Source: an uncultured Gemmataceae bacterium
Lineage (GTDB): Bacteria > Planctomycetota > Planctomycetia > Gemmatales > Gemmataceae
Direction: 5' to 3'
DNA: 64,000 bases
Assembly: GCA_963750165.1 (NCBI GenBank)
Contig: CAVVPN010000003.1
Span: forward strand, 1,632,001 to 1,696,000
Position 1 is the first letter of the stretch; every line of letters starts with the position of its first letter. The notes under the pieces were generated by a model. That model saw only the letters and a program-made list of their open reading frames with translations. It was not told where the DNA came from and did not search any database. The translations under genes and the position numbers were made by a program. Shown here piece by piece: positions 3,070-21,246 of the stretch.

Positions 3070-6000
3070 ATGAAGACCGACCTCCGCACGCTGCTCATCC
3101 CCGCCATCGCCGTCCTTGGTCTTTGCGGTGGTCGCTTCGCGGCGCAGCAGCCCGCGCCGGCCCAGCCGACCACGCCAACGATCGGCTTCAACCGCGACAT
3201 CCGTCCCATCCTGTCCAACCGCTGCTTCAAGTGCCACGGCCCCGATCTCAAGAAGAGCGGCCTCGACCTGCAAAGCCGTGACGGGGCGCTGAAAAAACTC
3301 CGCTCCGGCGAGCACGCCATCGTGCCCGGCAAGAGCGCCGACAGCGCCCTGATCCAGCGCGTCTGCTCCCCGGAAAAGAGCGAACGCATGCCGCCCACCG
3401 GCGCGCCGCTCAGCCCGACCCAGATCGCCAAACTGAAAGCGTGGATCGACCAGGGCGCGCCGTATGAGGAGCACTGGGCCTACGTCAAGCCGGTGCGGCC
3501 GCCGTACCCGGCGCTCAAGAATAAAAGCTGGCCGCGCAACGGCATCGACCATTTCGTGCTGGCCCGGCTGGAGCGCGAGGGGTTGCAGCCGGCGCCCGAA
3601 GCCGACCGCGCTCGCCTGATCCGCCGCGTCAGCCTGGACCTGACCGGCCTGCCGCCGACGGTGCGCGAGGTGGATGACTTCCTGAACGATCCGAGTCCGA
3701 ACGCTTACGAGAAGGTGGTGGATCGGCTGCTGGCGTCGCCGCATTACGGCGAGCATCAGGCGCGCTTCTGGCTCGACCAGGCCCGCTACGCCGACACCAA
3801 CGGCTACGAAGCCGACCAGCGCCGCACCCTCTGGCCCTACCGCGACTGGGTCATCAAGGCCTTCAACCGTGACCTGCCGTTCGACCAGTTCACGATTGAG
3901 CAGCTGGCCGGCGACCTGCTGCCCAACCCGACGCGCGACCAGTTGGTGGCGACCGGCTTCCATCGCAACACGATGGTCAACACCGAGGGCGGCACCGACG
4001 ATGAGGAGTTCCGCGTCGCCGCCGTCGTCGATCGCGTCAACACGACGATGGCAGTGTGGATGGGCACGACCATGAACTGCGCCCAGTGCCACAACCACAA
4101 GTATGATCCGTTCTCGCAGAAGGAGTTTTACCAGCTGTACGCCTTCCTCAACAGCACGGCGGATCGCGGCAAGAGCAACGAGCCGACGATCCGCATCCCG
4201 ACGGCCGAGGAAACCGCGAAACGCAAGAAAATCGCGGATCGGCGGGCGCCGCTGCTGCGGGAGCTGGAGCGGGACACACCCGAACTGCGCGCCGCCCAGC
4301 AGCAGTGGGAGAAGAGCCTGCGCGGCCAGGACGCCGCCTGGGTGCTGTTACGGCCGGTGCGGTTGGCCAGCGCCGGCGGCACCACGCTGACGGCACTGCC
4401 GGACGCCAGCGTTTTGGCTCACCAGCAGTCGCCGGCCACCGACACGTACACCGTCACGCTGGAGCCGAACCTGGCGGGCATCACCGCGTTCAAACTGGAA
4501 GCGCTGACCGACAAGGCGCTGCCGGCGAAGGGCCCCGGCCGGGCGGGCGGCAACTTCGTGCTGACCGGCGTCAAGGTGACGCTGGCCGACCGCAAGACGC
4601 CGACGCGCTCGCAGCCGGTGCCGCTGCAGAACGCCACGGCCGATTTTGCGCAGGCCAGGTTCAGCGTTGCCCTGGCGCTGGCCGGCAAGCCGAAGGCCGG
4701 CTGGGCCGTCGCGCCGCAGGTCGGCAAGCCGCACGTCGCCGTCTTCGAGACGAAGCAGGATGTCCACGCCGGCCTGGGTCGGACGCTCACGGTCACGCTG
4801 GAGCAGCAGTACGGCGACCAGCACACGCTTGGCCGCTTTCGGCTGTACGCCAGCACGACGCCGCGGCCGGTGCGCGTCCGCACGCTGCCGGACGCGGTGG
4901 CCCAGGCGCTGCGCGTGCCTTCCGACAAGCGCACGGTCGCCCAGCAGGACGCGGTGCTAAAATACTACCGTTCGGTGGCGCCGGAACTGGCGAAGCTGCG
5001 CGAGCAGATCGCCGCGCTGAAGAAGCAGGAGGCCGCCATCAAGCCGGCGACGACGATGGTCCTGAAGGAACTGCCGGCGCCGCGCGTGACGAAAATTCAC
5101 ATCCGCGGCAATCACCGTGACCTGGGCGCACAGGTTGGACCGGGTGTGCCAGCGAAATGGCACAAGCTGCCGGAGGGGCCGCTGAACCGCCTGACGCTGG
5201 CGCGATGGCTCGTCAGCCCGGATAACCCGCTGGTCGGTCGTGTGCTGATGAACCGCCTCTGGGCGCGCTACTTCGGCCACGGCCTGGTCGAAACGAGCGA
5301 GGACTTCGGCGCCCAGGGCGAGCCGCCGACACACCCCGAACTGCTGGACTGGCTGGCGACCGAATTGATGCTCCCCTCGCCCCCTCAAGGGGGAGAGGGG
5401 TCGGGGGTGAGGGGGTGGAGCCTCAAGGTGATGCACCGGACGATTGTGCTGTCGGCGACCTACCGCCAGTCGGCGCGGGTGACGCCGGCACTGGTGAAAC
5501 GCGACCCGTTCAACCGCCTGTACGCGCGCGGCCCGCGCTTCCGCATGGACGCGGAAATGGTGCGCGACAACGCCCTGGCGGTCAGCGGTCTGCTGACGCG
5601 CAAGCTGGGCGGGCCGAGTGTCTTCCCGTTCCAGCCCGACGGCATCTGGGCAAACCCGTACAGCGGCGATAAATGGGTGATGAGCACGAACGGCGACCAG
5701 TATCGCCGTGGTCTGTACACGTTCTGGCGGCGGACGGCGCCGTATGCGTCGTTCATGGCCTTCGACGCGCCGAGCCGCGAGGTGGCCTGTGAACGGCGGC
5801 CGCGCACCAACACGCCGCTGCAGGCGCTGGCGGTGCTCAACGACCGGGCCTTCGTGGAGCCGGCGGCGGCGCTGGCGCGGCGGATATTGAAGGAAGTCCA
5901 GGGGAGTGAGCGCGAACGAGCGCTCCACGGATTCCGGTTGTGCGTGGCCCGGGCGCCGTCCGCGGCGGAGCTGGATTTGTTGCTGACGTTGTACCGCGAG

Positions 6001-9091: not shown

Positions 9092-9832
9092 ATGACCGAG
9101 GCGGAGTGGCTGTGTTGTACGGACGACCCGGTTGGCATGTTGCTGGAGGTCTGTTCGCCTCCGAACAAACGTAAACTGGCCCTCTTTACCTGCTCCAGTC
9201 TGCGGGGGGTGTGGGATCAAATTCCTGTCGCCCTTCAAAAAGCACTGACTGAAATCGAGCTGGCGGTTAATGAAATCTCCGCCGCCGACCTGTCATGGCT
9301 CGGGGAAAGCGCCCTCATCTCGATTGAGGTCGAACTACTGGAAAAGGTTTGGGACAGCGATGTCGGACAATTGACGCCAAATTGGAGTCCTGAAATTGCC
9401 CGTCTCGCATCGGTATTGTTGCCCGGCACCGCCTCTTTCAACTTCAGTGATTGGGGGCCGCTGGAGGAGGAGGAACGGCGCGTGTCTGTTCACGCCCAGA
9501 GTTTCGGCCTTCCCGTGGCAACCGCCTGGCAGCGCGGCCGATCCCAACAGTGCGACTTGCTCCGTGACATCTTCGGCCCCATGAATCAGGAGATCCACAT
9601 CGACCCCGATTGGCTCGCCTGGGACGGAGGCACAATCCCCAAACTTGCCGCCAGCATTTTCGAAAAGCGCAGTTTTGATCGCCTACCGATCCTGGCAGAC
9701 GCCCTGGAGGAGGCGGGCTGTCAGGACGCCGAATTGCTACGCCACTGCCGCACGCCCGGCCTCCATGTCCGTGGGTGCTGGGCCGTGGACGCGCTACTGG
9801 GGAAGCCAGCGGTTTGCTGGACGCCTTGCTAA
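9092..9832 (+). CDS. Gemmataceae-expanded paralog family protein (MTEAEWL...ILADALEEAGC...HVRGCW)
   Basis: Characteristic N-terminal MTEAEWL and C-terminal LLRDIFG/FDRLPILADALEEAGC/HCR..GLHVRGCWAVDALLGK. Confidence 0.8.
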   Translation: MTEAEWLCCTDDPVGMLLEVCSPPNKRKLALFTCSSLRGVWDQIPVALQKALTEIELAVNEISAADLSWLGESALISIEVELLEKVWDSDVGQLTPNWSPEIARLASVLLPGTASFNFSDWGPLEEEERRVSVHAQSFGLPVATAWQRGRSQQCDLLRDIFGPMNQEIHIDPDWLAWDGGTIPKLAASIFEKRSFDRLPILADALEEAGCQDAELLRHCRTPGLHVRGCWAVDALLGKPAVCWTPC

Positions 9833-9842
9833 GAGCACTCTC

Positions 9843-11114
9843 ATGCCCCCGATGCGACGCCTGGCCGAAACCACCGTACTGACGCTCTGCGGCCTGCTGC
9901 TGCTGCACGCCTTCGTCATCACGCTCTGCCAGGTTCCCGGCGGCAGCATGGCCCCAACGCTGCACGGCCGGCACCGCGTTTGCACCTGTCCACGCTGCGG
10001 TCTGCGCGTCACCGTCGGCCACGGCCGCGGCCGCAGTTACGACCACGCCGCCTGTCCGAACTGCGACTTCCGCCCACTGCCGCTCGACGGTGCCGATCAG
10101 CCGGGCGACCAGCTGTGGGTTTTGCAGCCGGCTTTTTTGTGGTGGCCGCCGGCGCGCTGGGAAATTATCGTGTTCCGCTGGCTCGGCGAGTTGTTCATCA
10201 AGCGCGTGGTCGGCCTGCCGGGCGAAACGGTGGCGGTCCACGGCGGCGACGTGTACGTCAATGGCGAACTGGTGCGCAAGTCGCTGGCGGAGGCGCGGGC
10301 GCTGCGCGTACTGGTGTTCGACGGCGATTGCATGCCGCGGCCGCAGACCTGGGCAGCGCGCTGGCGCACGGAGCCGGGCTACACTGGCAAACACCCGCTA
10401 ACCGGTACGGAACTGCACCTCGGCGGCGAACGGGATGGAAAGTGGCAGACGTTCACTTATGAGCAAGTTGCGCTCGACGATGGAAAAGCTCAACCCCTGG
10501 CCGACGAATACGCTTATAACGGCGGCGAACCCACACCCATCACCTTCGTCCACGACTTCCTGGTAGAATGCGAGGTGGAAGTGCTGGCCCCAACTGGAGC
10601 GCTGCTCGTGGGGCTGACGGATGGGCAGGATACGGTGATCGCGGAGGTCGCCATCAGCGGCGCGGACCAACCGAGCCGGTTGCGGGTGACCGGCGCGGCG
10701 ACATCGGCCCACGAACTCACCGGGGCGGGGCTGCTGCAACCCGGGCGGTCACACCGGCTGGAATTCGCGTTCGTGGACCGCCGGGCGATGCTGGCCATCG
10801 ACGGCCGTGAACCGTTCGCGGCGCTGGACCTGCCACCGGCCACGCATCGCGCCCCGGTGACGCGGCCGCTGCTCCTGGGCGTCAAGGACGGCCGCGTCGT
10901 GGTGCGGCATCTGCGGCTGTACCGCGACCTACACTACACCGACACGGGCCGCAACGCCGTGCGCGGGCAGGTTGTCCGGCTGGGGCCGGACCAATATTTT
11001 GTCCTGGGGGACAACAGCCCACTCTCCGAGGACAGCCGGTTCTGGCCCGGCAATGGGACGGTTTCGTCCGCCCAGCTGGTTGGCCGACCGTTGGGGCTGC
11101 CAGGCGGTCGCTGA
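9843..11114 (+). CDS. lepB: Signal peptidase I (S26) with CxxC Zn-ribbon insert, intact single chain
   Basis: GGSMAPTL (Ser), CPRC/CPNC, FIKRVVGLPGE (Lys), YFVLGDNSPLSEDSRFW. Confidence 0.85.
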   Translation: MPPMRRLAETTVLTLCGLLLLHAFVITLCQVPGGSMAPTLHGRHRVCTCPRCGLRVTVGHGRGRSYDHAACPNCDFRPLPLDGADQPGDQLWVLQPAFLWWPPARWEIIVFRWLGELFIKRVVGLPGETVAVHGGDVYVNGELVRKSLAEARALRVLVFDGDCMPRPQTWAARWRTEPGYTGKHPLTGTELHLGGERDGKWQTFTYEQVALDDGKAQPLADEYAYNGGEPTPITFVHDFLVECEVEVLAPTGALLVGLTDGQDTVIAEVAISGADQPSRLRVTGAATSAHELTGAGLLQPGRSHRLEFAFVDRRAMLAIDGREPFAALDLPPATHRAPVTRPLLLGVKDGRVVVRHLRLYRDLHYTDTGRNAVRGQVVRLGPDQYFVLGDNSPLSEDSRFWPGNGTVSSAQLVGRPLGLPGGR

Positions 11115-11144
11115 GCGCGGCTGCCACTTTTACAGGGGTAGGGC

Positions 11145-11620
11145 ATGACCGAGGACCTGGGCAAGAACGTGAACGACAATGGCGCGCCGCTGCGCGAACG
11201 GGTGGCCGCCGTGCCCGTCCCCAGCGACAAGCTGACCAGTCCCCCCCGCCGCTGTCCGGCCGCCGGGCGCTGGCCACCCCCGAGCCGGGCAAGTCGCCGC
11301 AGCCCCCCGAGCCCAAGGACGGCACCCGTGAGGTCATCGACACCATCGTCATTGTGGTGGTGCTGGTGCTGTTGCTGAAGGGGTTCCTGGCCGAGGCGTT
11401 CGTCATCCCGACCGGCTCCATGGCGACAACGTTGCTCGGCTACCACAAGGTGGTGACCTGCCCGGAGTGCGGCCACCAGTTTTCGGTGAATTTCAGCAAG
11501 GAGGCCGACGCCGCCGAGGAGAACCCGCAGCCCATCATTGGCTGTACGTGCGAGAACTGCCGGCTGCACATCGAATTCCCCCAACCCGGGCCGCAGCAAC
11601 GCCGACCCCCTGGGCCCTGA
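11145..11620 (+). CDS. Signal peptidase I N-terminal subunit: TM, catalytic Ser box, Zn ribbon (probable 1-bp loss in the C-run at 11241-11247)
   Basis: REVIDTIVIVVVLVLLLKGFLAEAFVIPTGSMATTL, CPEC...CENC, Pro-rich tail, TGA at 11618-11620. Confidence 0.8.
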
Positions 11621-11674
11621 CCCGCCTGCCCCGCGTCCGGCCCCGGCCACCCGCACAACTCAAGGACCCCTGTC

Positions 11675-13189
11675 ATGCGACGATACCTGCTCTGCCTGCT
11701 GCTCGTGACGTTGTGCGGCCTCGCCGGCTGCGGCGGCCCCTGGAGCAGCGGCGACCGCGTCCTGGTCGCCAAGTTCCTCTACGACAGCGCCGCCATGCCG
11801 CCACAGCGTTACGACGTGGTGGTCTTCAAGTATCCGCGCACGCCCGTCGAGAAGGGTACTCCCAAGAACTACATCAAGCGACTGCTCGGCCTGCCCGGCG
11901 AGATCATTGCCATCTTCTTCGGCCGGCTGTATCGCTACGCCCCGGAAAAGGTGCCCGTCGATTATTCCCGGGTCGATCCCAGGGATCTGTGGAAGAACGA
12001 GAACCTGATGGACACGGAGCCGCTGAAGTTCTCGAACCTGGACGACTACCCGCCCGAGCAACGGGCCGTCCTGGAGAAGCGCCGGCAGGAGGGCAAGACC
12101 TTCATCGAGGACTCCTGGAAGGAGGGCAAGTTCACCATCCTGCGCAAGCCACTCGACACCCTGATGGCGCTGCGCCGCGTCGTGTACGACAACGACAAGC
12201 CGGCGAAGGACCTGGAAGGCGTTCTGCCGCCGCGCTGGCAGCCCTGGGACAAGACGGTCGTCTGGAAGGCCAGCGCTGACCACGGCTTTCAGGCCGACGG
12301 CTCCGGCAACGTCGAGCAGTGGCTGCGCTATCAGCACATCCTGCGGCCCGGAGACTGGCCGAAGCGGTCGAGCCCCATGTACGCCGCGGAAGTCGAGGGG
12401 ATCAAGCAGCGTAAACAGGATCCGCAACTAATCACCGACTTCATGGGCTATAACACCTACGAGACGGCAGGCCCTCAGCATCTGCGCTCCCAGCACTGGG
12501 TCGGCGACCTGATGCTGGAGTGCCAGCTGACCGTCGAGGAGCCGCAGGGCGAGGTCTGGCTGGAGCTGTCGCGGGGTGTGGACCGCTTCCAGGCCGTGTT
12601 CGATCTGGCCAACGGCCGGTGTACGCTCTACCGTCTCGTGGCCAGGGACGCCGGCGGCTCCCTGCGGAAGGAGAAGATGGCCGCGGCGGACACGCGCGTC
12701 AATGCGCGCGGCAAGTACCAGCTGCGCTTCGCCAACTTCGATGACCGGCTGACGCTCTGGGTGGACGGCGACCTGCCGTTCGGCGATGGCCAGGAGTACG
12801 CGGCGCCGCCGGAGCACGGCCCCGACGCGCGCTCGGCCGAGGTCAACAACGACCTGCACCCGGCGAGCATCGCCAGCAAGGCCGCCAAGGTGCAGGTCCA
12901 CCACCTCAAGTTGTGGCGCGACACGTATTACACGAAGGTGCCCTCGGACGCGGACGCCGTTCCGACCGAAGCGGGCGCGGACGGTTGGTCCAACCCAAAC
13001 AGGTGGGGGCCGATCCGCAACATCACCTTCCGCGGCATGTACGTCCATCCGGGCCATTACCTGTGCCTGGGCGACAACAGCCCGGAGAGTTCCGACAGCC
13101 GCGACTGGGGCCTGGTGCCGGAACGGCTGCTGCTCGGGCGGGCGCTGATGGTGTACTTCCCGCTGGAGCGTATGGGGCGGATCAAGTAA
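11675..13189 (+). CDS. Signal peptidase I C-terminal subunit with lipoprotein signal peptide (catalytic Lys half)
   Basis: MRRYLLCLLLVTLCGLAGC, then GDRVLVAK, YDVVVFKYP, NYIKRLLGLPGE, LGDNSPESSDSRDWG; no GSM Ser box. Confidence 0.85.
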   Translation: MRRYLLCLLLVTLCGLAGCGGPWSSGDRVLVAKFLYDSAAMPPQRYDVVVFKYPRTPVEKGTPKNYIKRLLGLPGEIIAIFFGRLYRYAPEKVPVDYSRVDPRDLWKNENLMDTEPLKFSNLDDYPPEQRAVLEKRRQEGKTFIEDSWKEGKFTILRKPLDTLMALRRVVYDNDKPAKDLEGVLPPRWQPWDKTVVWKASADHGFQADGSGNVEQWLRYQHILRPGDWPKRSSPMYAAEVEGIKQRKQDPQLITDFMGYNTYETAGPQHLRSQHWVGDLMLECQLTVEEPQGEVWLELSRGVDRFQAVFDLANGRCTLYRLVARDAGGSLRKEKMAAADTRVNARGKYQLRFANFDDRLTLWVDGDLPFGDGQEYAAPPEHGPDARSAEVNNDLHPASIASKAAKVQVHHLKLWRDTYYTKVPSDADAVPTEAGADGWSNPNRWGPIRNITFRGMYVHPGHYLCLGDNSPESSDSRDWGLVPERLLLGRALMVYFPLERMGRIK

Positions 13190-13249: not shown

Positions 13250-13633
13250 ATGTTGAGCTGCGACACCACCATCCGCGTGCGCTACGCGGAAACCGACCGC
13301 ATGGGGCTGCTGCACCACGCGAACTACCTGGTCTACTTCGAGCAGGGCCGCACGGAATTATTGCGCACGCGCGGCTTGACGTACAAGGATCTGGAGGACC
13401 AGGGCTTTCTGCTGGTGCTGACACGCCTGCAGGTGCGCTACCGCAGTCCGGCGTTTTACGACGACTTGCTGACCCTGCGGACAACGGTCGTGCGGACAAC
13501 GCTGGTAAAGATCGAACACAAGTACGAGTTGTACCGCGGCGAGACGCTGGTGGCGGAGGCGGAGACGACGCTCGGCTGCGTTGATCGCCAGGGGCACGTG
13601 CAGGCGCTACCGGAATTCTTGCGTCAGGAATAG
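13250..13633 (+). CDS. YbgC/FadM-family acyl-CoA thioesterase
   Basis: IRVRYAETDRMGLLHHANYLVYFEQGR hot-dog fold motif. Confidence 0.9.
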   Translation: MLSCDTTIRVRYAETDRMGLLHHANYLVYFEQGRTELLRTRGLTYKDLEDQGFLLVLTRLQVRYRSPAFYDDLLTLRTTVVRTTLVKIEHKYELYRGETLVAEAETTLGCVDRQGHVQALPEFLRQE

Positions 13634-13735
13634 TCAATAGTCATTAGTCATTAGTCATTAGTCATTAGTAACCCGGGTCTCCGCCAAGGGCAGGAATTTG
13701 GATTACTAATGACTAATGACTAATGACTAATGACT
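13631..13735. repeat. Inverted heptamer arrays (TAGTCAT)n ... (ATGACTA)n
   Basis: About five units on the left and four on the right around a unique spacer. Confidence 0.9.
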
Positions 13736-13753
13736 CCTCCGAAGGAGGCTGCT

Positions 13754-14281
13754 GTGCGGCGAATGGTGATTCGGCTGGTGCTGCCGCTGATCCTGTGTGC
13801 CCTACCGCTGCTGGTCGCGGCCCTGGTGGCGACCGCCACGCCCGCCGCCGCACGCACCTTCTATCTGCACCGCGTCGCCGACTCGCCCATTGACTGGATC
13901 ATTCTGGGCCTGGGGCTGAGCCTGTTCACGATGCAGCTGATGCTCACCTGGCGGGCGCTGCAGTGGCGCGGCGGCGGCTTCGACGAGCGGCCCGACCACT
14001 GGCTGAACAACCTCGCCCAGGCCGCCGAGTGGTTTCCCATGCTTGGCCTGATCGGCACGGTGACCGGCATCCTGCAAACTTTCAGCACCATTGCCGAAGA
14101 CCCATCGGTAACGACCCGAACCATCATCGGCCTGTACGCCCCGGCCATCACCGCGACTGGCAGCGGCCTGTTCATGGCCCTGATTAATATCCTGCCGACG
14201 TGGGTGGTGCTGCTGGGACGTGACCTGATCCTGTCGCTGGGCGGCAGCGGCCCGTCGGCCTCGGGGGGCCCGCGGTCATGA
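13754..14281 (+). CDS. MotA/TolQ/ExbB proton-channel family protein (short, divergent)
   Basis: FPMLGLIGTVTGILQTF...APAITATGSGL; AAGGAGG RBS before GTG 13754. Confidence 0.8.
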   Translation: MRRMVIRLVLPLILCALPLLVAALVATATPAAARTFYLHRVADSPIDWIILGLGLSLFTMQLMLTWRALQWRGGGFDERPDHWLNNLAQAAEWFPMLGLIGTVTGILQTFSTIAEDPSVTTRTIIGLYAPAITATGSGLFMALINILPTWVVLLGRDLILSLGGSGPSASGGPRS

Positions 14282-14781
14282 TCCACATGCCCCGGCGCAG
14301 CGTCACGCGCTTCTTCATCCCGCTCATCGACGTGATGATCCTGCTGTTCTGCATCTTCCTGCTGCTGCCGGTCTTCAAGGAAGCGCCCGACAACCCCGAT
14401 GCGGACGCCAAGAAAAAGTCCCTCAACCAGGAGGAGGAGTTGAAGAAACTCCGGGCCGAACTGGCTGAACTGCGCAAGGGGCAGCGCGGCGTGGCGGTGC
14501 GGGTGCTGGAGGTGGACCCGCGCACCGGCGCCCTGTTCTATTACCAAAAAGGGGAGCGGCAGGATCTGGACTCGGCGGCGAAGGTCGCGGCGCTGGTCGC
14601 CCGGCACGAGCGCGAGGCGAAGGACCAGGCCGCAACGGGTTCGCCCGCGCCGGAACTGCGCTACATCATCCTCTACCCGCCGCCGGCGCTGGAGTCCGTC
14701 CAGCCGACCGGCAACCGGTTGAAGGATTACGAGCACTGGTTCGGCAAAACGCACTACGTCCTGGATAAGCGCGGCGGCTGA
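14278..14781 (+). CDS. ExbD/TolR-like protein
   Basis: FFIPLIDVMILLFCIFLL TM with conserved Asp; ATGA overlap with upstream gene. Confidence 0.75.
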   Translation: MIHMPRRSVTRFFIPLIDVMILLFCIFLLLPVFKEAPDNPDADAKKKSLNQEEELKKLRAELAELRKGQRGVAVRVLEVDPRTGALFYYQKGERQDLDSAAKVAALVARHEREAKDQAATGSPAPELRYIILYPPPALESVQPTGNRLKDYEHWFGKTHYVLDKRGG

Positions 14782-14867
14782 TCGGCCCGGCGTTGGCAGC
14801 GCCGCCTGCAGTGGCACACCCAGCCATCCTCTGCCTACTTCGAGAGGCGTGCCAGAGGAGTGAGATC

Positions 14868-15575
14868 GTGACCGAGTCGTTTGCCCCGAGCGTGCCGTTG
14901 GCGGCCCTGGACTTCAGCCTGCTGCCCGAAGTGCTGCAGCTCGCCATCCGCTTTTTCCTGGCCGTGGTGGCCGCCGTCGTCGCCTGGTTCGTGATGGGCC
15001 CGGTGGCGCGGCTGCTGTATCGCCTGGCGTTCCAGCGGCCCATGCCCAACACGCTGGCGGGCTGGTCGCAGCTGGTCGGGGCCGTGATCGTGGGCGTGCT
15101 GGTGTTCCTGTTCCTGCCGCCGTTTGGCGGAGGCGGCGGGGGCGGCGGCGGCCTGTTCGGCGGCGGCGGTGGCAACGGCACCGCGAAAAAAAATGGCAAG
15201 GGTGAGGGCAGCGACCAGACCGGCAAGGACGCCAGGGATGGCGGCACGAAAAAGGAGCGGCCCGACGTGCTTGAAGTCGAGATGGCCCCCGATGGGCTGT
15301 ATGAGTATGGCAGCGGCCGCTACTACCTGCTGTACACGCCGGAGACGCCGCGCAGTTTCGCCTCGGCGCAGGAGTACCGCAAACACCTGAAAACGCTGGC
15401 GGAGGTGAAGGACTACCTGGAGGCGAACGCCAGGCGGTACAAGGAGATGGACATCCTGATTTATGGCAACAGTGCCGAGCCGGGCAGTCCTATCGTCCTT
15501 GCGTTGACAAATCTGGCCGATCAATTCCGCCTGCCGTATTTGAAGCGGCCCCAGGGCAAGCGCAAGACCTTGTAG
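14868..15575 (+). CDS. Membrane protein with two TM helices, Gly-rich linker and soluble domain
   Basis: Hydrophobic segments followed by a poly-G/K linker; GAGGAG RBS before GTG 14868. Confidence 0.7.
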   Translation: MTESFAPSVPLAALDFSLLPEVLQLAIRFFLAVVAAVVAWFVMGPVARLLYRLAFQRPMPNTLAGWSQLVGAVIVGVLVFLFLPPFGGGGGGGGGLFGGGGGNGTAKKNGKGEGSDQTGKDARDGGTKKERPDVLEVEMAPDGLYEYGSGRYYLLYTPETPRSFASAQEYRKHLKTLAEVKDYLEANARRYKEMDILIYGNSAEPGSPIVLALTNLADQFRLPYLKRPQGKRKTL

Positions 15576-15615
15576 CGGTCGGCCCGCGCCCGCGGTCAGC
15601 AAGGGAGCGACCATC

Positions 15616-17305
15616 ATGGACCAGGCGAGTCCGAGCACGCAGACGGCCCCGGCGGTGTCGAGCCGGTCGCTGCGCGTCGTCCTGTTCGGCATGCCCAAGG
15701 CCGGCAAGTCATCGTTGCTGGGCGCCCTTGCTCAGGCGGCACAGACGCAGGAGCACATCTTCAACGGCCGTATCCTGGACAAATCGCAGCGGCTCCTGGA
15801 ACTGCAGCGCCGCCTCTACGAGGGCCGACCGCGCGAGACCCTGGAGGAGGTCGCGGCCTATGACATCGCGCTGCAGCCCCTGGGCGGCAAGCCCGGCGAA
15901 CCCACGGCCGGGACGGTGAACGCCACGCTGATCGACTGCGACGGCCGCGTCGCCAACGAGTTGCTGGCCAGGGATGATCTGAACGGCACCGGCCGGGCGC
16001 TGGCGCGGTCCGTGCTGAATGCGGACACGCTGGTGCTGGTCGTGGACGCCTCCACCGATGCGGGGACGCTGAAACAGACCTTCGGCCAGTTCGCGCAGTT
16101 CCTGCGGGCGCTGGAGATGAGCCGTGGCGAGCGCACCGAGGTCGGCGGCCTGCCGGTGTACCTGGTGCTGACCAAGTGCGACCTGCTGGCGCAAAAGACG
16201 GACACGACCGCCGCCTGGATGGATCGCATCGAGGAGCGCAAGCGTGAGGTGAGCCAGCGCTTCAAGGACTTCCTGGCGGTAAACGAAGGCAGCGACGGGG
16301 TGCCGTTCGGCAAGGTGGAGTTGAACGTGTGGGCGACGGCGGTGAAGCGGCCGGCGCTGGCGGACGCGCCGGCGCGGCCGGTGGAGCCGTATGGCGTCGC
16401 GGAGTTGTTCCGCCAGTGCCTGGAGTCGGCGGCGGCCTACCGGGAGCGGCGGACGCTGGCGAGCCGGCGGTTGCTGTTCACGCTCGGGGTCGCGGGCGGC
16501 GTCGTGGTGGCGCTGGTGCTGCTGATGCTGGTGCTGGTCCTGAGCCAGCCGTCGAAGGAAGCCACCGCGCTGAACGACGAGGTGCGTCGCTACATCGCCG
16601 CCAACGACCGGCCGGCGGAGCGCTTCCAAAACATCGACGACAAGCTGGAGCAGCTGAAGCACTTCAAGGACAGCCCGGATTTCGCGCGGTTGCCGGAGGA
16701 CTATCGCGCGGGTCGCTGCCGACCTGAAGGCGTTGACCGAGTACAAGCGCTTTACCGAACAGGTGCGCGAGGTCGGCAAGACGTTCAGCTTCGACCTGAA
16801 CCGCGTGCCGGACGACGCCGAGGAGAATCTGAAGAAGATTCAAATGGACTTGAAGGCGCTCAAGGAGCAGCAGGTGAAGTTGTCGGTGTCGCCGGAGTAT
16901 CGGGCGGCCTGGTCCTCGTCGGAGACGGTGCGGCAGCTGGACCAGTGGCTCGCGGACCTGCACATCCTGGACGCGGAGAAGGAGCAGGTTGTCCAGGAAT
17001 ATAATCAGCTGCTGCAGGAGGGCGCGGAGGCGCTGCGGCAGGGCCGGGCACGGTTCCAGAACGAGAAGGTCATCAAGGTGGAGGATCTGGATCGGGTGGA
17101 GTCGCTGAAGAACCGGTCGAAAAGGCTGGCGGAGCGGCGCACCGCGCGGGCGGACGAGTTGCTGCCTGGCGCGGCCGAGGTCAAGAACGCCCTGCTGTTC
17201 CGGTTGCGCAGCGTCCAGGCGGCGCAGCGGCGGTGGGAAGTCAGCGACGTGAAGCGGGACCTGGAAGATTACCTGAACTACATTAAATCCAGGAGCAGCG
17301 GATGA
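15616..17305 (+). CDS. Membrane-anchored P-loop GTPase with C-terminal coiled coil (frameshift near 16705-16730)
   Basis: G1 GMPKAGKS, G3 DCDG, G4 TKCD, TM LLFTLGVAGGVVVALVLLMLVLVL; helical continuation in ORF 16733-17305. Confidence 0.75.
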
Positions 17306-17340: not shown

Positions 17341-17550
17341 CTAGAGCGGTTCGCGTTTGGGTAGCGCACAAGTCGTGGGACGGCTCTCCAGAGCCGTCAG
17401 CGTTCTCCCGACGGCTCTGGAGAGCCGTCCCACGACTTGTAGTCCACGCGACTGGGAACCGCTCTAGAGCGGTTCGCAGTTGGGTGTAGCGGAAGTCGCC
17501 AGACTTCCGTCCGGTGCTGCTCGGAAGTCTGGCGACTTCCGCTACACCCA
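17341..17550. mobile_element. Tandem CTAG-bounded elements, each carrying a REP doublet
   Basis: CTAG-AGCGGTTC...GTGG-GACGGCTCTCCAGAGCCGTC...inverse...GAACCGCT-CTAG (17341-17467), then AGCGGTTC...GTAG-CGGAAGTCGCCAGACTTCCG...inverse-CTAC (to 17545). Confidence 0.75.
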
Positions 17551-17798
17551 GTCGCAATCTGCAATAACAGCAACCCATCCACGGCAAAAGTTTCGAGGTC
17601 GAGTTGAGCAGCGGTCCCTGCGGCGGCAAGGACGTTCCCGGTGGTGCGGTGTCGCCCTTCACTGGCAAATCCGTGCAGACGATCCTGAACGGGCATTACC
17701 GGCTCGTGGTCCCAGAGTCCGAAGCCGTAGCGGGGGATATTCTGGTTTGGGGGACGACACGCCGCGCTCGGTCCCACGCAGAGCCTGGGACCGAGGGT

Positions 17799-20700
17799 TT
17801 ATCGCGACCCCGGCCCGGACATGCCCATCAGGCCGCCGCTGGTGCCGCTGCCCATGCCGCCCATCGTGCCCATGCGGCGGCTGGCCGGCAGCAGGTTCGG
17901 ATACACCTGGAACAGGAAGCTGAACGTGCTCAGCGCCGAACTGTAGCTGAAGCCGATGTCCACCTCCACGTCCGAGCCGACGTGCGCAAAGAACGCCGAC
18001 ACGGTCTGCACCTTGTTGCCCACGTCGTCAGCCATCGTGAACGTCAGGGCGTACTTGCTGCTGAACGGGTAGGTGATGCTGGCGACGAACGTCTTGCTGT
18101 TGAGCGGGTCAATTTGCCGGTACATCAGCAAGACGTTCGTCTTGTCCGGCCGGTTGATCGTGCCGCCGAAGCTGAAGATGTGCGCCCCGTTCTGGAACGG
18201 TTCAAAAAAGCCCGAGCTGAACAGCGCCGTGCGGTCGCCGACGTTCCAGTTCCAGTCGTACTCCAGGAAGCCGACGTCGCTGCCGAAGTTCTGCGACGTG
18301 TTGGGAAAGAACGACGCCGACAGGTCCAGCGTCATCCAATCGACGATGTGCTGCTGCCCCAGGTAGCCGCGCTTCGTCTGCCAGCGCTGGCGGACATCGA
18401 ACTGGAAGGTGTTGATGCTGCCCAGCGTGTCGATGCGGTCCATGACCAGGCGGCGGACGGCCATCGACTGCGGATCGAACTGCGCCTGGGCCGGCAGCAA
18501 GGTGCCGACGCCGGGGTAGTAAATTGGCTCGAACGGCCGGATGTCGCGCATCGCCTGGTCGGTGGCGTCGTCGTGGATGCGGTCGAGCTGCGGCAGCAGG
18601 GTGTACGGTGTGTCGCTGTGGGCGATGTAGTAGTTGCCGCCCACTACTATCTTGTGAAAGATACCGTTGAGGTTGAGCAGCTCGCTGCACACGTCCGGGT
18701 AGAGCTTCGAGAAGGGGATGCTGCCGCGCATGCCGCCGCCGCCGTAGAAGCGGCCACGGCCCTCGCCCGCCAAGTCCTGCGTGTAGTACGTCAGGTCGAG
18801 CGTGGCGTACGGCACCAGTTTGAACGCTCCCATCTGGAACGGCAGACTGATTTCCTGGCCCCAGTCGAAGCGGCCGGTGGCGTCGTTCTGGTCGGTCGGC
18901 AGCAGCACGCCGGTCTGGTCCGATGTGCCGATCAGGTGGTAGTAGCCGGCGCTGCCGCGCGAGTTATACGTGAACAGGTCGAGGAATTTCTGGCCGATCA
19001 GGTAGCCCTGCACCTCGGGCAGCCGCTGCGCCTCGGTCACCCATTCGCGGAGGCGCGGCTCCGCCTTGATGTCCCACGCCATGATGCCCTGCTGCTGCTT
19101 GGCATAGAAGTACGTCTCCTGGTTCAGACCGCGCTGGAACTCCATCTGAAAGAACTGCTCAAGGAAGTTGCGGTCGGACAGCAGCGACACCTGGGACTGC
19201 ACCGAGAGGCCCATCGGCAGCTCCTGCATGTTGAGCTGACCGAGCAGGCGGCCGCGCCACTCGGGGTGCGGCGTATTCCAGAAATCGAGCTGCGGCACGA
19301 AGCTGGTGTACTGGCCCTCACCGCGGCCGCCGCCGAGCTGGTCGTTGCCGGTGTCGTGGATGCCGTACAGTTTGAAGTCACCGTTGGTCTTGTTGGGGAT
19401 GCCGAACATGTCCGTGATGCTGTACGCGAAGTCGGTGCCCAGGGCCGGGCCGCGCGCCGTCATCACGTCGGCGTAGAGCCGCCAGCGTGTGCCCGGCACG
19501 CGCTGCATCCCGAGCAACTCGTACAGGTCCCAGGTGGTGAACAGCTGGAAGCCGAAAATCTTGTTGTAGTTGAACGAGAAGTTGTCGAGTGGGCCGAGCG
19601 GATCGTTGACGTTGGCGGCGAGGTACGGCAGATAGAAGATCGGTACGCCGCCGATGTACAGGAGCATGTTGCGGCCCTGGAAAATCCGCTGCACTTCCTG
19701 TTCTTGCTGGCCGGTCTTGGGGTCGGTGAACGGGATGCCGAAGATGCTGTGCGCGGCACCGTGACGGTCTCGACCTGCGATGTGGTGAAGGTGACCTTGA
19801 TGCCGGGGTCCGAGGGCAGCTTGCTGGCGTTGAGGTCAGTCTCCTTGAGCTTGTACAGTTCGGCGTTGAGCTGGTCGATCTCCGGCGAGTTGATGTGGAC
19901 CGGATCGGCGACGCCCACTTCGCGGATTTCCATTTTGGCATTGAGGGCGATGGAGACGTTGCGGGCGGTGTTGTAATACACCTCGTCAGCGCGGATGAGG
20001 CGCGCCTCCTTGGGGCTCTGGTTGCGCAACTCGACGTTGCCGGACAGGTAGAACTCCTCGGGCGGCTGGTTGTTCTGATTGCCGCCGGTCTGGCGGAGGC
20101 CGTTGAGCGTGTCCTGGAAGTTGCCGCGTGTCCAGAAGACGAGGCGGTCGGCCTCGATGTCCACGAAGGTGCGGCCGTCGCCGGCCTGCAGGATGACGCC
20201 GCCGGTGACGACGACGATGGTTTCGCCGTTGGGCTGCGGGAAGTCGCGGGCCTTGAGTTCGATCAGGGACGAGCGCGGCACGATGACGAGCGAGCGCCGC
20301 GGTGCCGGGCCCATGTCTTCCAGCGGCACGACCTTTGGCTGCGGCCCAACCTGGGGCTGCTGCGATGGCTGGGACGGATTCGCCGGCACGCTCGGCGGCG
20401 GCACCTTGGGGGAAGTGTCGGGCGGCGTCGGCGGTTGCTGCAAGGGCTGGAATTGCTGGACCGGCGTGCCCTGCACCTGACCGGCAGGTGGCGTCGGTGC
20501 CGGGACCTGGGCGGCGGTTTGCTGCACCTGGCCGGGGGCGACGGCGCCTCCGGCGGATACGACGCCGCCAGTCGCTGGCCGCGCGCGCTCGGCGACGGTG
20601 CGCTGGTATAGCGGGTTCTGTGTCTGCGACTGGCTCACAATTGTGCCGACGTAAACATGTCCTTTCACCTGGGCGCTGGTAATCAGGGTGAACAGGGCCC

Positions 20701-21094
20701 GGGGCGTGGCCTGGGTGCCGATGACACTGTTGGAGCCGTCGAGCAGCTGGGTGAGGTTTTCGCCGTAGACCTCCACTTGATACTTGCCGGTCTTGCGCTG
20801 GCTCTCGAGGTTCACCCAGACGACGGCGTTTTCCATGCGGCCCTGGAGCACGCCCTGCTCGATGTAGGCGTCGCCGCTGAGGAGGAAGACCTGATAGTTT
20901 TGTTCGGTCCAGCTGGCGATGGTGCGGGCGGACAGGGTGATAGTCTGGTTGGCGGCGGGGTCGGTGCGATTCCAGGTGAGGCGGGCCGACTGGGCGAACA
21001 GGGACAGCGGGGCGCAGAGCAGCAGGAGGGCGGCGCAGGCGGCGCGGGCACCGCTGCCGGACGGCAGTCGAGGTATGCTGGATCGCGTGGTCAC
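17799..21094 (-). CDS. LptD/OstA-like LPS-assembly outer-membrane protein, planctomycete type (frameshift near 19740)
   Basis: Signal peptide, OstA-like IEADRLVFW/YLSGNV/ADEVYY, GGVPIFYLPY, SDRNFLEQFF, QRWQTKRG, aromatic beta-barrel C-terminus. Confidence 0.75.
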
Positions 21095-21218
21095 GGCGTC
21101 CCCCTCTCTGGCTCGTCTCATCCCTGCCCACCCCCGCGGTGCCGTCGGCGCGCGTCGGCCGCCCCGCGGGGCAACGCTGTTTCGTCGTGTTGAAAAACTT
21201 GAACGAAAAGAGCGGCGA

Positions 21219-21246
21219 AGTATAGAAAGCCGCACCGACCTGTCAA
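21219..21246 (-). promoter_or_regulatory. sigma70-like promoter TTGACA-N16-TATACT
   Basis: Near-consensus hexamers upstream of the LptD-like gene. Confidence 0.7.

Follow-up and report, generated by a model that had tools for sequence, protein, structure and literature searches.

The window analysed here, a stretch of 64,000 nucleotides (G000:C3:1632001-1696000) from an uncultured Gemmataceae bacterium whose genome (G000) is 93% complete, harbours a module of four genes, which encode a small subunit of the ExbB/TolQ/MotA family, an ExbD/TolR/MotB-like subunit, a third protein (P3) and a protein headed by a GTPase domain. We consider the chances evenly balanced that these proteins are an inner-membrane motor which uses the GTPase-headed protein instead of TolA or TonB for the upkeep or remodelling of the cell envelope. 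All module genes share one orientation downstream of two signal peptidase I genes, and the start of the ExbD-like gene (14278) overlaps the stop of the ExbB-like gene (14281). Coordinates are those of the window, and the named relatives are Gemmataceae. The original prediction for this DNA had described the co-oriented order thioesterase, ExbB-like, ExbD-like, a protein with two transmembrane segments (TMs) and a Gly-rich linker, and GTPase, which was confirmed by the open reading frames (ORFs) and family matches. The absence of TolB, Pal and a TonB-dependent receptor, also claimed there, is borne out within the stretch, where no TolB, Pal or receptor genes were found. A literature search revealed no earlier description of the module, and comparative gene-cluster tables of Gemmataceae in supplements may list the genes.

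The motor pair

The ExbB-like protein matches PF01618 with 45.4 bits (cut-off 22.9). Its residues T110, T141 and T143 are invariant in 62 of 62 aligned sequences, the mean column identity of the family is 58%, and the protein can be aligned to the pore helices of TolQ, ExbB and MotA, its best solved relatives. ExbB, TolQ and MotA carry a large cytoplasmic domain. The ExbB-like protein appears to lack such a domain, because in its hydropathy profile with four hydrophobic segments only about 20 residues separate the second from the third. The topology of these segments is tentative, and Phobius places three TM segments in the Tuwongella orthologue, compared with the four seen by hydropathy here. 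The likely start of the gene is the GTG at 13754, which is preceded by a ribosome-binding site.

The ExbD-like protein consists of one TM, a short coiled coil and a globular C-terminal domain. With 15 bits it stays below the cut-off of PF02472 (25.4), and 18 of the 64 family members match this profile at E<=0.05. The aspartate which was predicted to be retained in this protein is D18, and it is invariant in all 64 aligned members. The equivalog models of TolQ (score 31.6, cut-off 221) and TolR (12.4, cut-off 127.3) were missed. Judged from its sequence, the pair belongs to the MotA/TolQ/ExbB-MotB/TolR/ExbD superfamily of 5:2 motors, and a 5:2 assembly as well as ion conduction would be expected for it. 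A search of solved structures with the profiles of the ExbD-like protein and P3 returned low-complexity or coiled-coil chance matches, plus weak matches to the TM of MotB, and a search for fused forms of the ExbD-like protein, itself a weak one, found one unrelated-looking chimera only.

Three further motor loci are located on the same contig of G000, at about 1.85 Mb (L156), 3.51 Mb (L157) and 0.59 Mb (L158). One is a canonical ExbB-ExbD-ExbD cluster accompanied by large membrane proteins; the other two are ExbB-like genes of 444-446 aa, followed by genes for proteins with a TM and a long coiled coil. These loci may belong to the vWA classes described in PMC12204202.

The third protein

In the predicted model of P3 (mean pLDDT 80.5) a helical hairpin is joined by a disordered linker to a small alpha/beta domain. 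Its top structural match among 48,161 chains is TolR of E. coli (5by4; Z 8.0, rmsd 4.8, 91 aligned residues). TolR of H. influenzae (2jwk) is matched with Z 6.1 (rmsd 2.6, 71 of 74 residues), level with the unrelated CoaA at Z 6.4. Independent support for a TolR fold comes from the alignment of the C-terminal domain of P3 with that of the adjacent ExbD-like family over 87 columns (E 1.3e-4, probability 54%). In the family alignment P3 has no conserved TM aspartate, the residue of the channel, and no conserved histidine, so that a TM histidine of the TolA or SHLS type is missing. P3 is therefore predicted to be an accessory subunit with a TolR fold. That P3 is TolA itself was ruled out by its two TMs, the missing conserved histidine and the TolR-fold domain.

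Foldseek gave no match with the P3 model at E<=0.001, and in the ESM Atlas only unnamed clusters from Planctomycetota were retrieved. The weak fusion search found no fused form of P3 and missed P0077, a single sequence joining a P3-like part to the GTPase. The junction in P0077 looks off-frame, and the fusion may be an artefact.

The GTPase-headed protein

In the window the GTPase gene is not one ORF. Six intact relatives, which carry both parts in a single ORF, match the first frame as far as about 16707, and five of the six continue in another frame at about 16712 (matches within 16712-17290). This frameshift near 16707-16712 is likely an assembly error, because the second signal peptidase gene also shifts frame near a C run and because the long-contig loci L033, L045, L046 and L048 show scattered frameshifts. 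The motifs predicted for this protein (GxxxxGKS, DxxG and TKxD, here G1, G3 and G4) and one TM are indeed present, although not in a single ORF, whereas the predicted long coiled coil is modelled instead as a series of helical bundles with a beta-rich end in the long form.

Among 131 aligned members the lysine of G1 is conserved in 129, the aspartate of G3 in 128, and the lysine and aspartate of G4 in 123 and 131, respectively; the alignment was gathered with an intact G domain as query and is biased towards intact G domains. By length, 73 members are long (>760 aa), 55 short (500-620 aa) and three lie between; the protein of the window is a short form of about 540 aa. In the model of the long-form relative P0011 (mean pLDDT 94) residues 15-280 form the G domain; a TM helix leads from it to the helical bundles (319-677), and the beta-rich end spans 681-815. 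The G domain is anchored by its C-terminal TM, behind which the arm spans 250-520 residues. Because basic residues precede the TM, the positive-inside rule predicts a cytoplasmic G domain and a periplasmic arm.

The best structural matches of the G domain are RagD (Z 17.8, rmsd 2.8, 177 aligned), Loki Rag (Z 17.6), Arl and Rab28. YcjX is matched over 235 residues (Z 15.5, rmsd 3.8), and MglA (Z 13.2) ranks 47th, behind Rag, Arl, Rab and YcjX. The domain is predicted to be a small GTPase of the TRAFAC class with a Ras-like fold, in which G1, G3 and G4 are present; binding and hydrolysis of GTP are putative. In structure searches with the whole model the match lists were filled by the G domain, and the arm alone gave no usable match in the ESM Atlas. 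The top Foldseek match had suggested a dynamin or atlastin. This identity was rejected, as the helical region lies after the TM and not before it on the G-domain side, and with it the match to Sey1 (TM-score 0.20, rmsd 41). In two loci a second, shorter gene matching the arm follows the GTPase gene (L048, 9316-10107; L062, 5210-5716).

Distribution and gene order in the Gemmatales

In a sample of 201 Gemmatales genomes, G000 included, matches to the ExbB-like protein were found in 183 (E<=1e-8; six of these are weak), to the P3 profile in 176, and to the GTPase, searched with a single protein, in 157. All three are nearly always present in one copy per genome. A repeated search of 46 genomes with a GTPase profile yielded matches in 28, five P-loop-only matches being left out as non-orthologues. 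Matches to the TM and the arm with little or no G domain were found in g8 (9 of 9), g16 (4 of 5), g26, g31, g48, g73 and g75. The module is also present in the cultured Gemmata massiliana, Gemmata sp. SH-PL17 and Tuwongella immobilis (GMBLW1_15560-15530).

The phylum was represented by 301 planctomycete genomes, about 298 of them from outside the order. Here the ExbD-like profile matched only G000 and G001, which belong to the same family, the ExbB-like profile matched one extra genome with generic ExbB genes, and the GTPase profile gave three P-loop-only matches. The module was thus not found in the about 298 genomes sampled outside the Gemmatales, and in the genomes searched it is confined to this one order. 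Among 1.84 billion representatives the GTPase gave 471 matches. The conserved neighbourhood which had been proposed as a check across the Planctomycetota therefore exists within the Gemmatales but was not found beyond them. A general role in the FtsZ-less division of the phylum is rejected for the same reason.

Of 18 loci from the genome collection, 11 have the same gene order, six are unlinked and one is too short. For a larger count we used 150 listed matches per query, and after G000 and two second matches had been dropped there were 125 genomes with both an ExbB-like protein and a GTPase. Among the matches listed, the two genes are adjacent (1.1-2.2 kb) in 74 of these genomes. With 11 of 18 loci and 74 of 125 genomes the gene order is far beyond chance. 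We also inspected 98 loci chosen to include split operons. Breaks occur between ExbD and P3, between P3 and the GTPase, and once between ExbB and ExbD, and the missing parts were located elsewhere in the genomes examined. In this sample, which is enriched for split loci, the ExbB-like gene has an ExbD-like neighbour in 68 of 70 and P3 nearby in 53 of 68 cases. Often P3 and the GTPase have left ExbB-ExbD together (L089, L091, L093, L096-L098, L106). In the genus g16 all four genes diverge jointly, while the thioesterase and the signal peptidase do not.

Two genomes of the genus g74 carry a diverged trio of a 136-aa ExbB-like gene, an Asp-bearing partner and a P3-like gene (L149, 7561-9094; L150, 6759-8304). 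The second gene of the trio reaches 12.6 bits and the third 13.5 bits (shuffle maxima 4.8 and 5.2), and there is no adjoining thioesterase, peptidase or GTPase. This trio is possibly the simplest form of the module.

The conservation pattern is that of housekeeping genes and not of a defence island. This bears on the alternative, raised already in the original prediction, that the genes are a conflict system, either a Zorya-like motor or a system of the DO-GTPase type. DO-GTPase2 is the second-best Pfam match of the GTPase-headed protein, found in 11 of 24 relatives, two of which are above the cut-off. One of these, P0061, has an N-terminal zinc ribbon. However, at E<=0.01 the PADLOC models including Zorya match none of the eight proteins, and the module is present in single copy at a fixed housekeeping position next to lepA-lepB with no variable effector. 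The Walker B glutamate of the DO-GTPases is not conserved in the 131 aligned members, in which the residue after the G3 glycine is R in 84, Q in 13 and A in 9. A scan of the module genes gave no match to GAP1, and the downstream genes vary. We regard a defence function as extremely unlikely.

Expression in Tuwongella immobilis

The ExbB-like orthologue of T. immobilis is P0258 (GMBLW1_15560). In table S3 of PMC8567305 it stands in the order lepA, two lepB, esterase and 15560, followed by three proteins: one of 19.5 kDa with one TM, one of 24.9 kDa with two TMs and a 97 kDa MMR_HSR1 protein. These neighbours were assigned by annotation, size and TM count, not by alignment. During ordinary growth 15540 (P3) was detected in the Triton fraction only and 15530 (GTPase) in the Triton and SDS fractions (PMC8567305). 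Triton is reported to extract inner-membrane and SDS outer-membrane proteins, and many cytoplasmic proteins are also found in the SDS fraction. The main text of PMC8567305 does not mention these genes.

The same source cites T. immobilis as non-motile and as missing most peptidoglycan genes. This is of importance for a further explanation, in which the module is an engine of surface motility like AglRQS of Myxococcus, with a built-in switch of the MglA type. AglRQS are three motor subunits under a small GTPase (PMC11135422), and MglA is among the structural matches of our G domain. But the module is intact and partly expressed in an organism described as non-motile, MglA stands behind Rag, Arl, Rab and YcjX in rank, and no Glt-like neighbours were seen; we therefore consider motility very unlikely.

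Proposed function

If the module is an envelope motor as proposed, the ExbB-like pentamer and the ExbD-like dimer would form a 5:2 ion-driven motor that pulls on the long single-pass GTPase-headed protein in place of TolA or TonB. It would work on the periplasmic side, because the motor appears to have no cytoplasmic torque- or load-bearing domain, and the GTPase-headed protein is chosen as the stand-in for TolA because it is the only conserved long periplasmic partner. Its gross layout with one TM, a long helical region and, in long forms, a terminal globular domain is TolA-like. P3 could serve as an adaptor without ion conduction, with its TM hairpin docked on the motor and its TolR-fold domain holding a partner. 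The GTPase head may be an optional on/off or positioning switch of the arm, which itself might reach the outer envelope. The most likely target of the machine is the outer envelope, whose outer layer it would hold or pull inwards, with the bud neck as one possible site. In cells that apparently lack Pal and most peptidoglycan genes it would thus fill a role that belongs elsewhere to Tol-Pal. Physical coupling between the GTPase and the motor is putative. A complex prediction for the four proteins of L041 scored 0.21 and 0.08 relative to a mark of 0.32, with trimmed chains in one copy each, the GTPase being scored, and no folded controls.

In G000, as far as its 93% completeness allows, neither Pal (TIGR02802) nor TonB_C nor a TonB-dependent barrel was found, which suggests that the motor works there without a canonical transducer. 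The negative results for TonB_C and the barrel could also favour a Ton-like energiser for the uptake of proteins or polysaccharides through a non-canonical outer-membrane pore, linked to the endocytosis-like uptake of Gemmata. This motor family usually powers outer-membrane processes, and uptake of macromolecules has been reported for G. obscuriglobus (PMC12673574). Yet such uptake is also reported for Planctopirus, from outside the order, and searches of the genomes sampled there did not detect the module. The neighbourhood shows no conserved genes for transporters or substrates, and G000 has its canonical ExbB-ExbD-ExbD cluster elsewhere. We take an uptake function to be improbable.

Several observations weigh against the envelope motor. 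No outer-membrane partner was identified, and neither the GTPase-headed protein nor P3 has a conserved TM histidine of the TolA/TonB type. The terminal domain is missing from the short forms (55 of 131), and the match of P3 to TolR at Z 8 is at the edge of scores reached by common arrangements. In the T. immobilis proteome the ExbB-like (15560) and ExbD-like (15550) proteins have zero signal, as has the esterase (PMC8567305). G040, a genome of 100% completeness, matched none of the three queries, and for this reason the module may not be essential everywhere. Correlations of branch-length residuals among module pairs, measured with a single reference gene, are weak (0.34-0.48), and the pair of thioesterase and ExbB reaches 0.43, as strong as the module pairs; rate covariation adds little beyond the joint divergence in g16. 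In addition, loci of g8, g16, g31, g47, g72 and g73 carry a decayed P-loop or none, and the G4 pattern is unmatched in nine loci which bear a P-loop. On a quick LG+G4 tree of 30 loci, which was built without columns of the GTPase and without g47 after the removal of 11 frameshifted, truncated or near-duplicate loci, the P-loop-decayed forms need two changes and a single clade is rejected (p-AU 0.006), the tree being unrooted with respect to the direction of change and long branches possibly biasing this rejection. GTP control looks accessory, as the TM and the arm were retained in at least two lineages whose P-loop has decayed or disappeared.

Other observations could mean that ExbB-ExbD-P3 alone is the machine and the GTPase-headed protein a separate one that merely shares the lep operon. 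Among the matches listed, the ExbB-like gene and the GTPase are apart in 51 of the 125 genomes. Contig breaks account for some of these cases, though not for G103 and G118, each of which is a single contig. In g74 the GTPase profile matched none of five genomes although the ExbB-ExbD-P3-like trio is present, and a motor without a detectable arm is therefore possible. No fused forms were found either, in the weak search which overlooked P0077. On the other hand, P3 accompanies the GTPase away from ExbB-ExbD in several genomes, the GTPase has the same order-restricted range as the trio, and both diverge together in g16. The likelihood of two separate systems is in our view small.

Of the original proposal of an undescribed envelope module of motor and GTPase, the module itself stands on its conservation, single copy, intact channel residues and expression, while the term GTP-driven is too strong, because several genera have lost the P-loop and retained the remaining parts. 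The analogy to tol-pal applies to the motor pair only: the proteins stay below the cut-offs of TolQ, TolR and ybgC, a TolR fold is predicted for P3, and there is no conserved TolA-type TM histidine. A more far-reaching version, which we hold to be rather unlikely, would make the module a GTP-gated force transducer, the first 5:2 motor with a TolA-like arm bearing its own Ras-like switch, which constricts the bud neck or shapes inner-membrane invaginations without FtsZ, MreB, Pal and conventional peptidoglycan. Gemmatales bud without FtsZ, MreB and most peptidoglycan genes are reportedly missing from them, and their internal membranes are the most elaborate in the phylum (PMC12673574, PMC8567305). 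The module offers four concrete genes and one residue, the aspartate of the ExbD-like protein, which may bear on this budding and membrane machinery. It would also widen the 5:2 motor family by a minimal pentamer subunit, a TolR-fold subunit with two TMs and an arm headed by a G domain.

Genes in the vicinity of the module

The features of the locus are listed in Table 1.

Table 1. Features of the proposed motor module and its upstream neighbours in the window.
Feature	Position	Strand	Remarks
Two signal peptidase I genes	9645..13189	+	PF10502; housekeeping context; second one split
YbgC/FadM-family acyl-CoA thioesterase	13250..13633	+	TIGR00051; usual upstream neighbour
Inverted array of 7-base unit, long hairpin	13634..13735	.	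intergenic
Small ExbB/TolQ/MotA-family subunit	13730..14281	+	PF01618; T110, T141, T143 invariant
ExbD/TolR/MotB-like subunit	14278..14781	+	one TM, invariant D18
Third protein (P3), 235 aa	14868..15575	+	TM hairpin, Gly-rich linker, predicted TolR-fold domain
GTPase gene, 5' part	15616..16707	+	putative Ras-like G domain and TM, followed by the first stretch of the helical arm
GTPase gene, 3' part, other frame	16712..17305	+	remaining helical arm

The thioesterase matches TIGR00051 with 92.5 bits (cut-off 68.7) and misses the tol-pal ybgC equivalog (92.4 bits, cut-off 141.35). In the loci enriched for split operons it lies upstream of the ExbB-like gene in 63 of 69 cases with room, and a signal peptidase is near in 53 of 68. 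The thioesterase is probably not part of the machine and merely its usual neighbour. In 27 related loci lepA is found upstream of the peptidases; the lepA of the source genome sits elsewhere (G000:C1:317139-318959).

The location behind lepA and the signal peptidases would suit a motor for secretion or the assembly of surface proteins, in which the GTPase-headed protein with its TM and helical region is a scaffold like TssM/IcmF. TssM and IcmF consist of a cytoplasmic P-loop domain, a TM, a periplasmic helical region and a terminal beta domain, a layout to which that of the GTPase-headed protein is similar, and weak matches to TssM (TIGR03348, 18.3 bits) and IcmF-related_N (13.7 bits) were obtained. 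These scores are, however, far under the cut-offs of 388.15 and 25, the conserved neighbours include no secretion genes, and lepA-lepB is an ordinary housekeeping pair. We consider a secretion machine unlikely.

The second signal peptidase I of the window (11354-11620 and 11675-13189) is divided by an in-frame stop. The first piece has a TM, the catalytic Ser and a zinc ribbon, and the next piece, which bears the Lys, begins with a lipoprotein-type signal peptide immediately ahead of the conserved box. The same peptidase is split, with a different sequence, in L041 (about 1050-2855) and L066 (about 3700-5664) of two other genomes, while in most relatives it is one ORF. It is possibly a natural two-chain signal peptidase. 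At 11145-11300 the N-terminal part of this gene shifts frame near a C run in the manner of an indel error.

The hairpin of the inverted array (13634-13735) has a folding energy of -63 kcal/mol. G000 holds 35 such inverted pairs and 53 arrays of the 7-base type, and the array is thus a genome-wide repeat which is not specific for the module. Behind the GTPase (17370-17552) there are two long palindromic repeats, whose 20-mers occur 86 and 189 times in G000. Further downstream on the minus strand (17799-21235) a large gene extends over two overlapping ORFs, possibly due to a frameshift. With its N-terminal domain and barrel-like part it looks like an outer-membrane barrel and is a candidate for an LptD-like protein.

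Comparison with known systems

The module would work like a Tol or Ton motor, yet it is not Tol-Pal, Ton, a vWA or DO-GTPase system or TssM. With Tol-Pal it shares the gene order thioesterase, pentamer, dimer, the conserved Thr ring and Asp, and the periplasmic TolR-fold domain predicted for P3. In contrast to Tol-Pal, all equivalog cut-offs are missed by the module proteins, the ExbB-like protein has four hydrophobic segments and apparently no large cytoplasmic domain, TolA and the TM histidine are absent, and neither TolB nor Pal is encoded in the locus, Pal being not found in G000 at all. In addition there are the TolR-fold subunit with two TMs and the long GTPase-headed protein.

The force transducers of the ExbB-ExbD-TonB and PVC vWA type described in PMC12204202 resemble the module in their 5:2 motor genes with a partner other than TolA or TonB, and in having two TolR-like genes. 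But the module has no vWA match, no TPR gene and no SHLS histidine, and its second TolR-fold protein spans the membrane twice and lacks the Asp. Furthermore, the canonical ExbB-ExbD-ExbD cluster of G000 is separate.

AglRQS-Glt with MglA is likewise a TolQR-like three-subunit motor under the control of a small GTPase (PMC11135422). In the module, however, one protein carries both the G domain and the single-pass arm predicted to be periplasmic, no Glt genes were seen nearby, and the module occurs in a non-motile species. TssM/IcmF has the domain layout predicted for the long forms of the module GTPase and a similar strand before the G4 motif, whereas the module GTPase lies far under the cut-offs, lacks N-terminal TMs, has no type VI genes in its conserved neighbourhood and is paired with a 5:2 motor. 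Finally, the G domain has the Ras-like fold of Rag, Arl, Rab and YcjX, but in contrast to these and to the DO-GTPases it is followed by a C-terminal TM and an arm of 250-520 residues and decays in some lineages, and the Walker B glutamate that defines DO-GTPases (PMC7159879) is replaced by other residues in this family.

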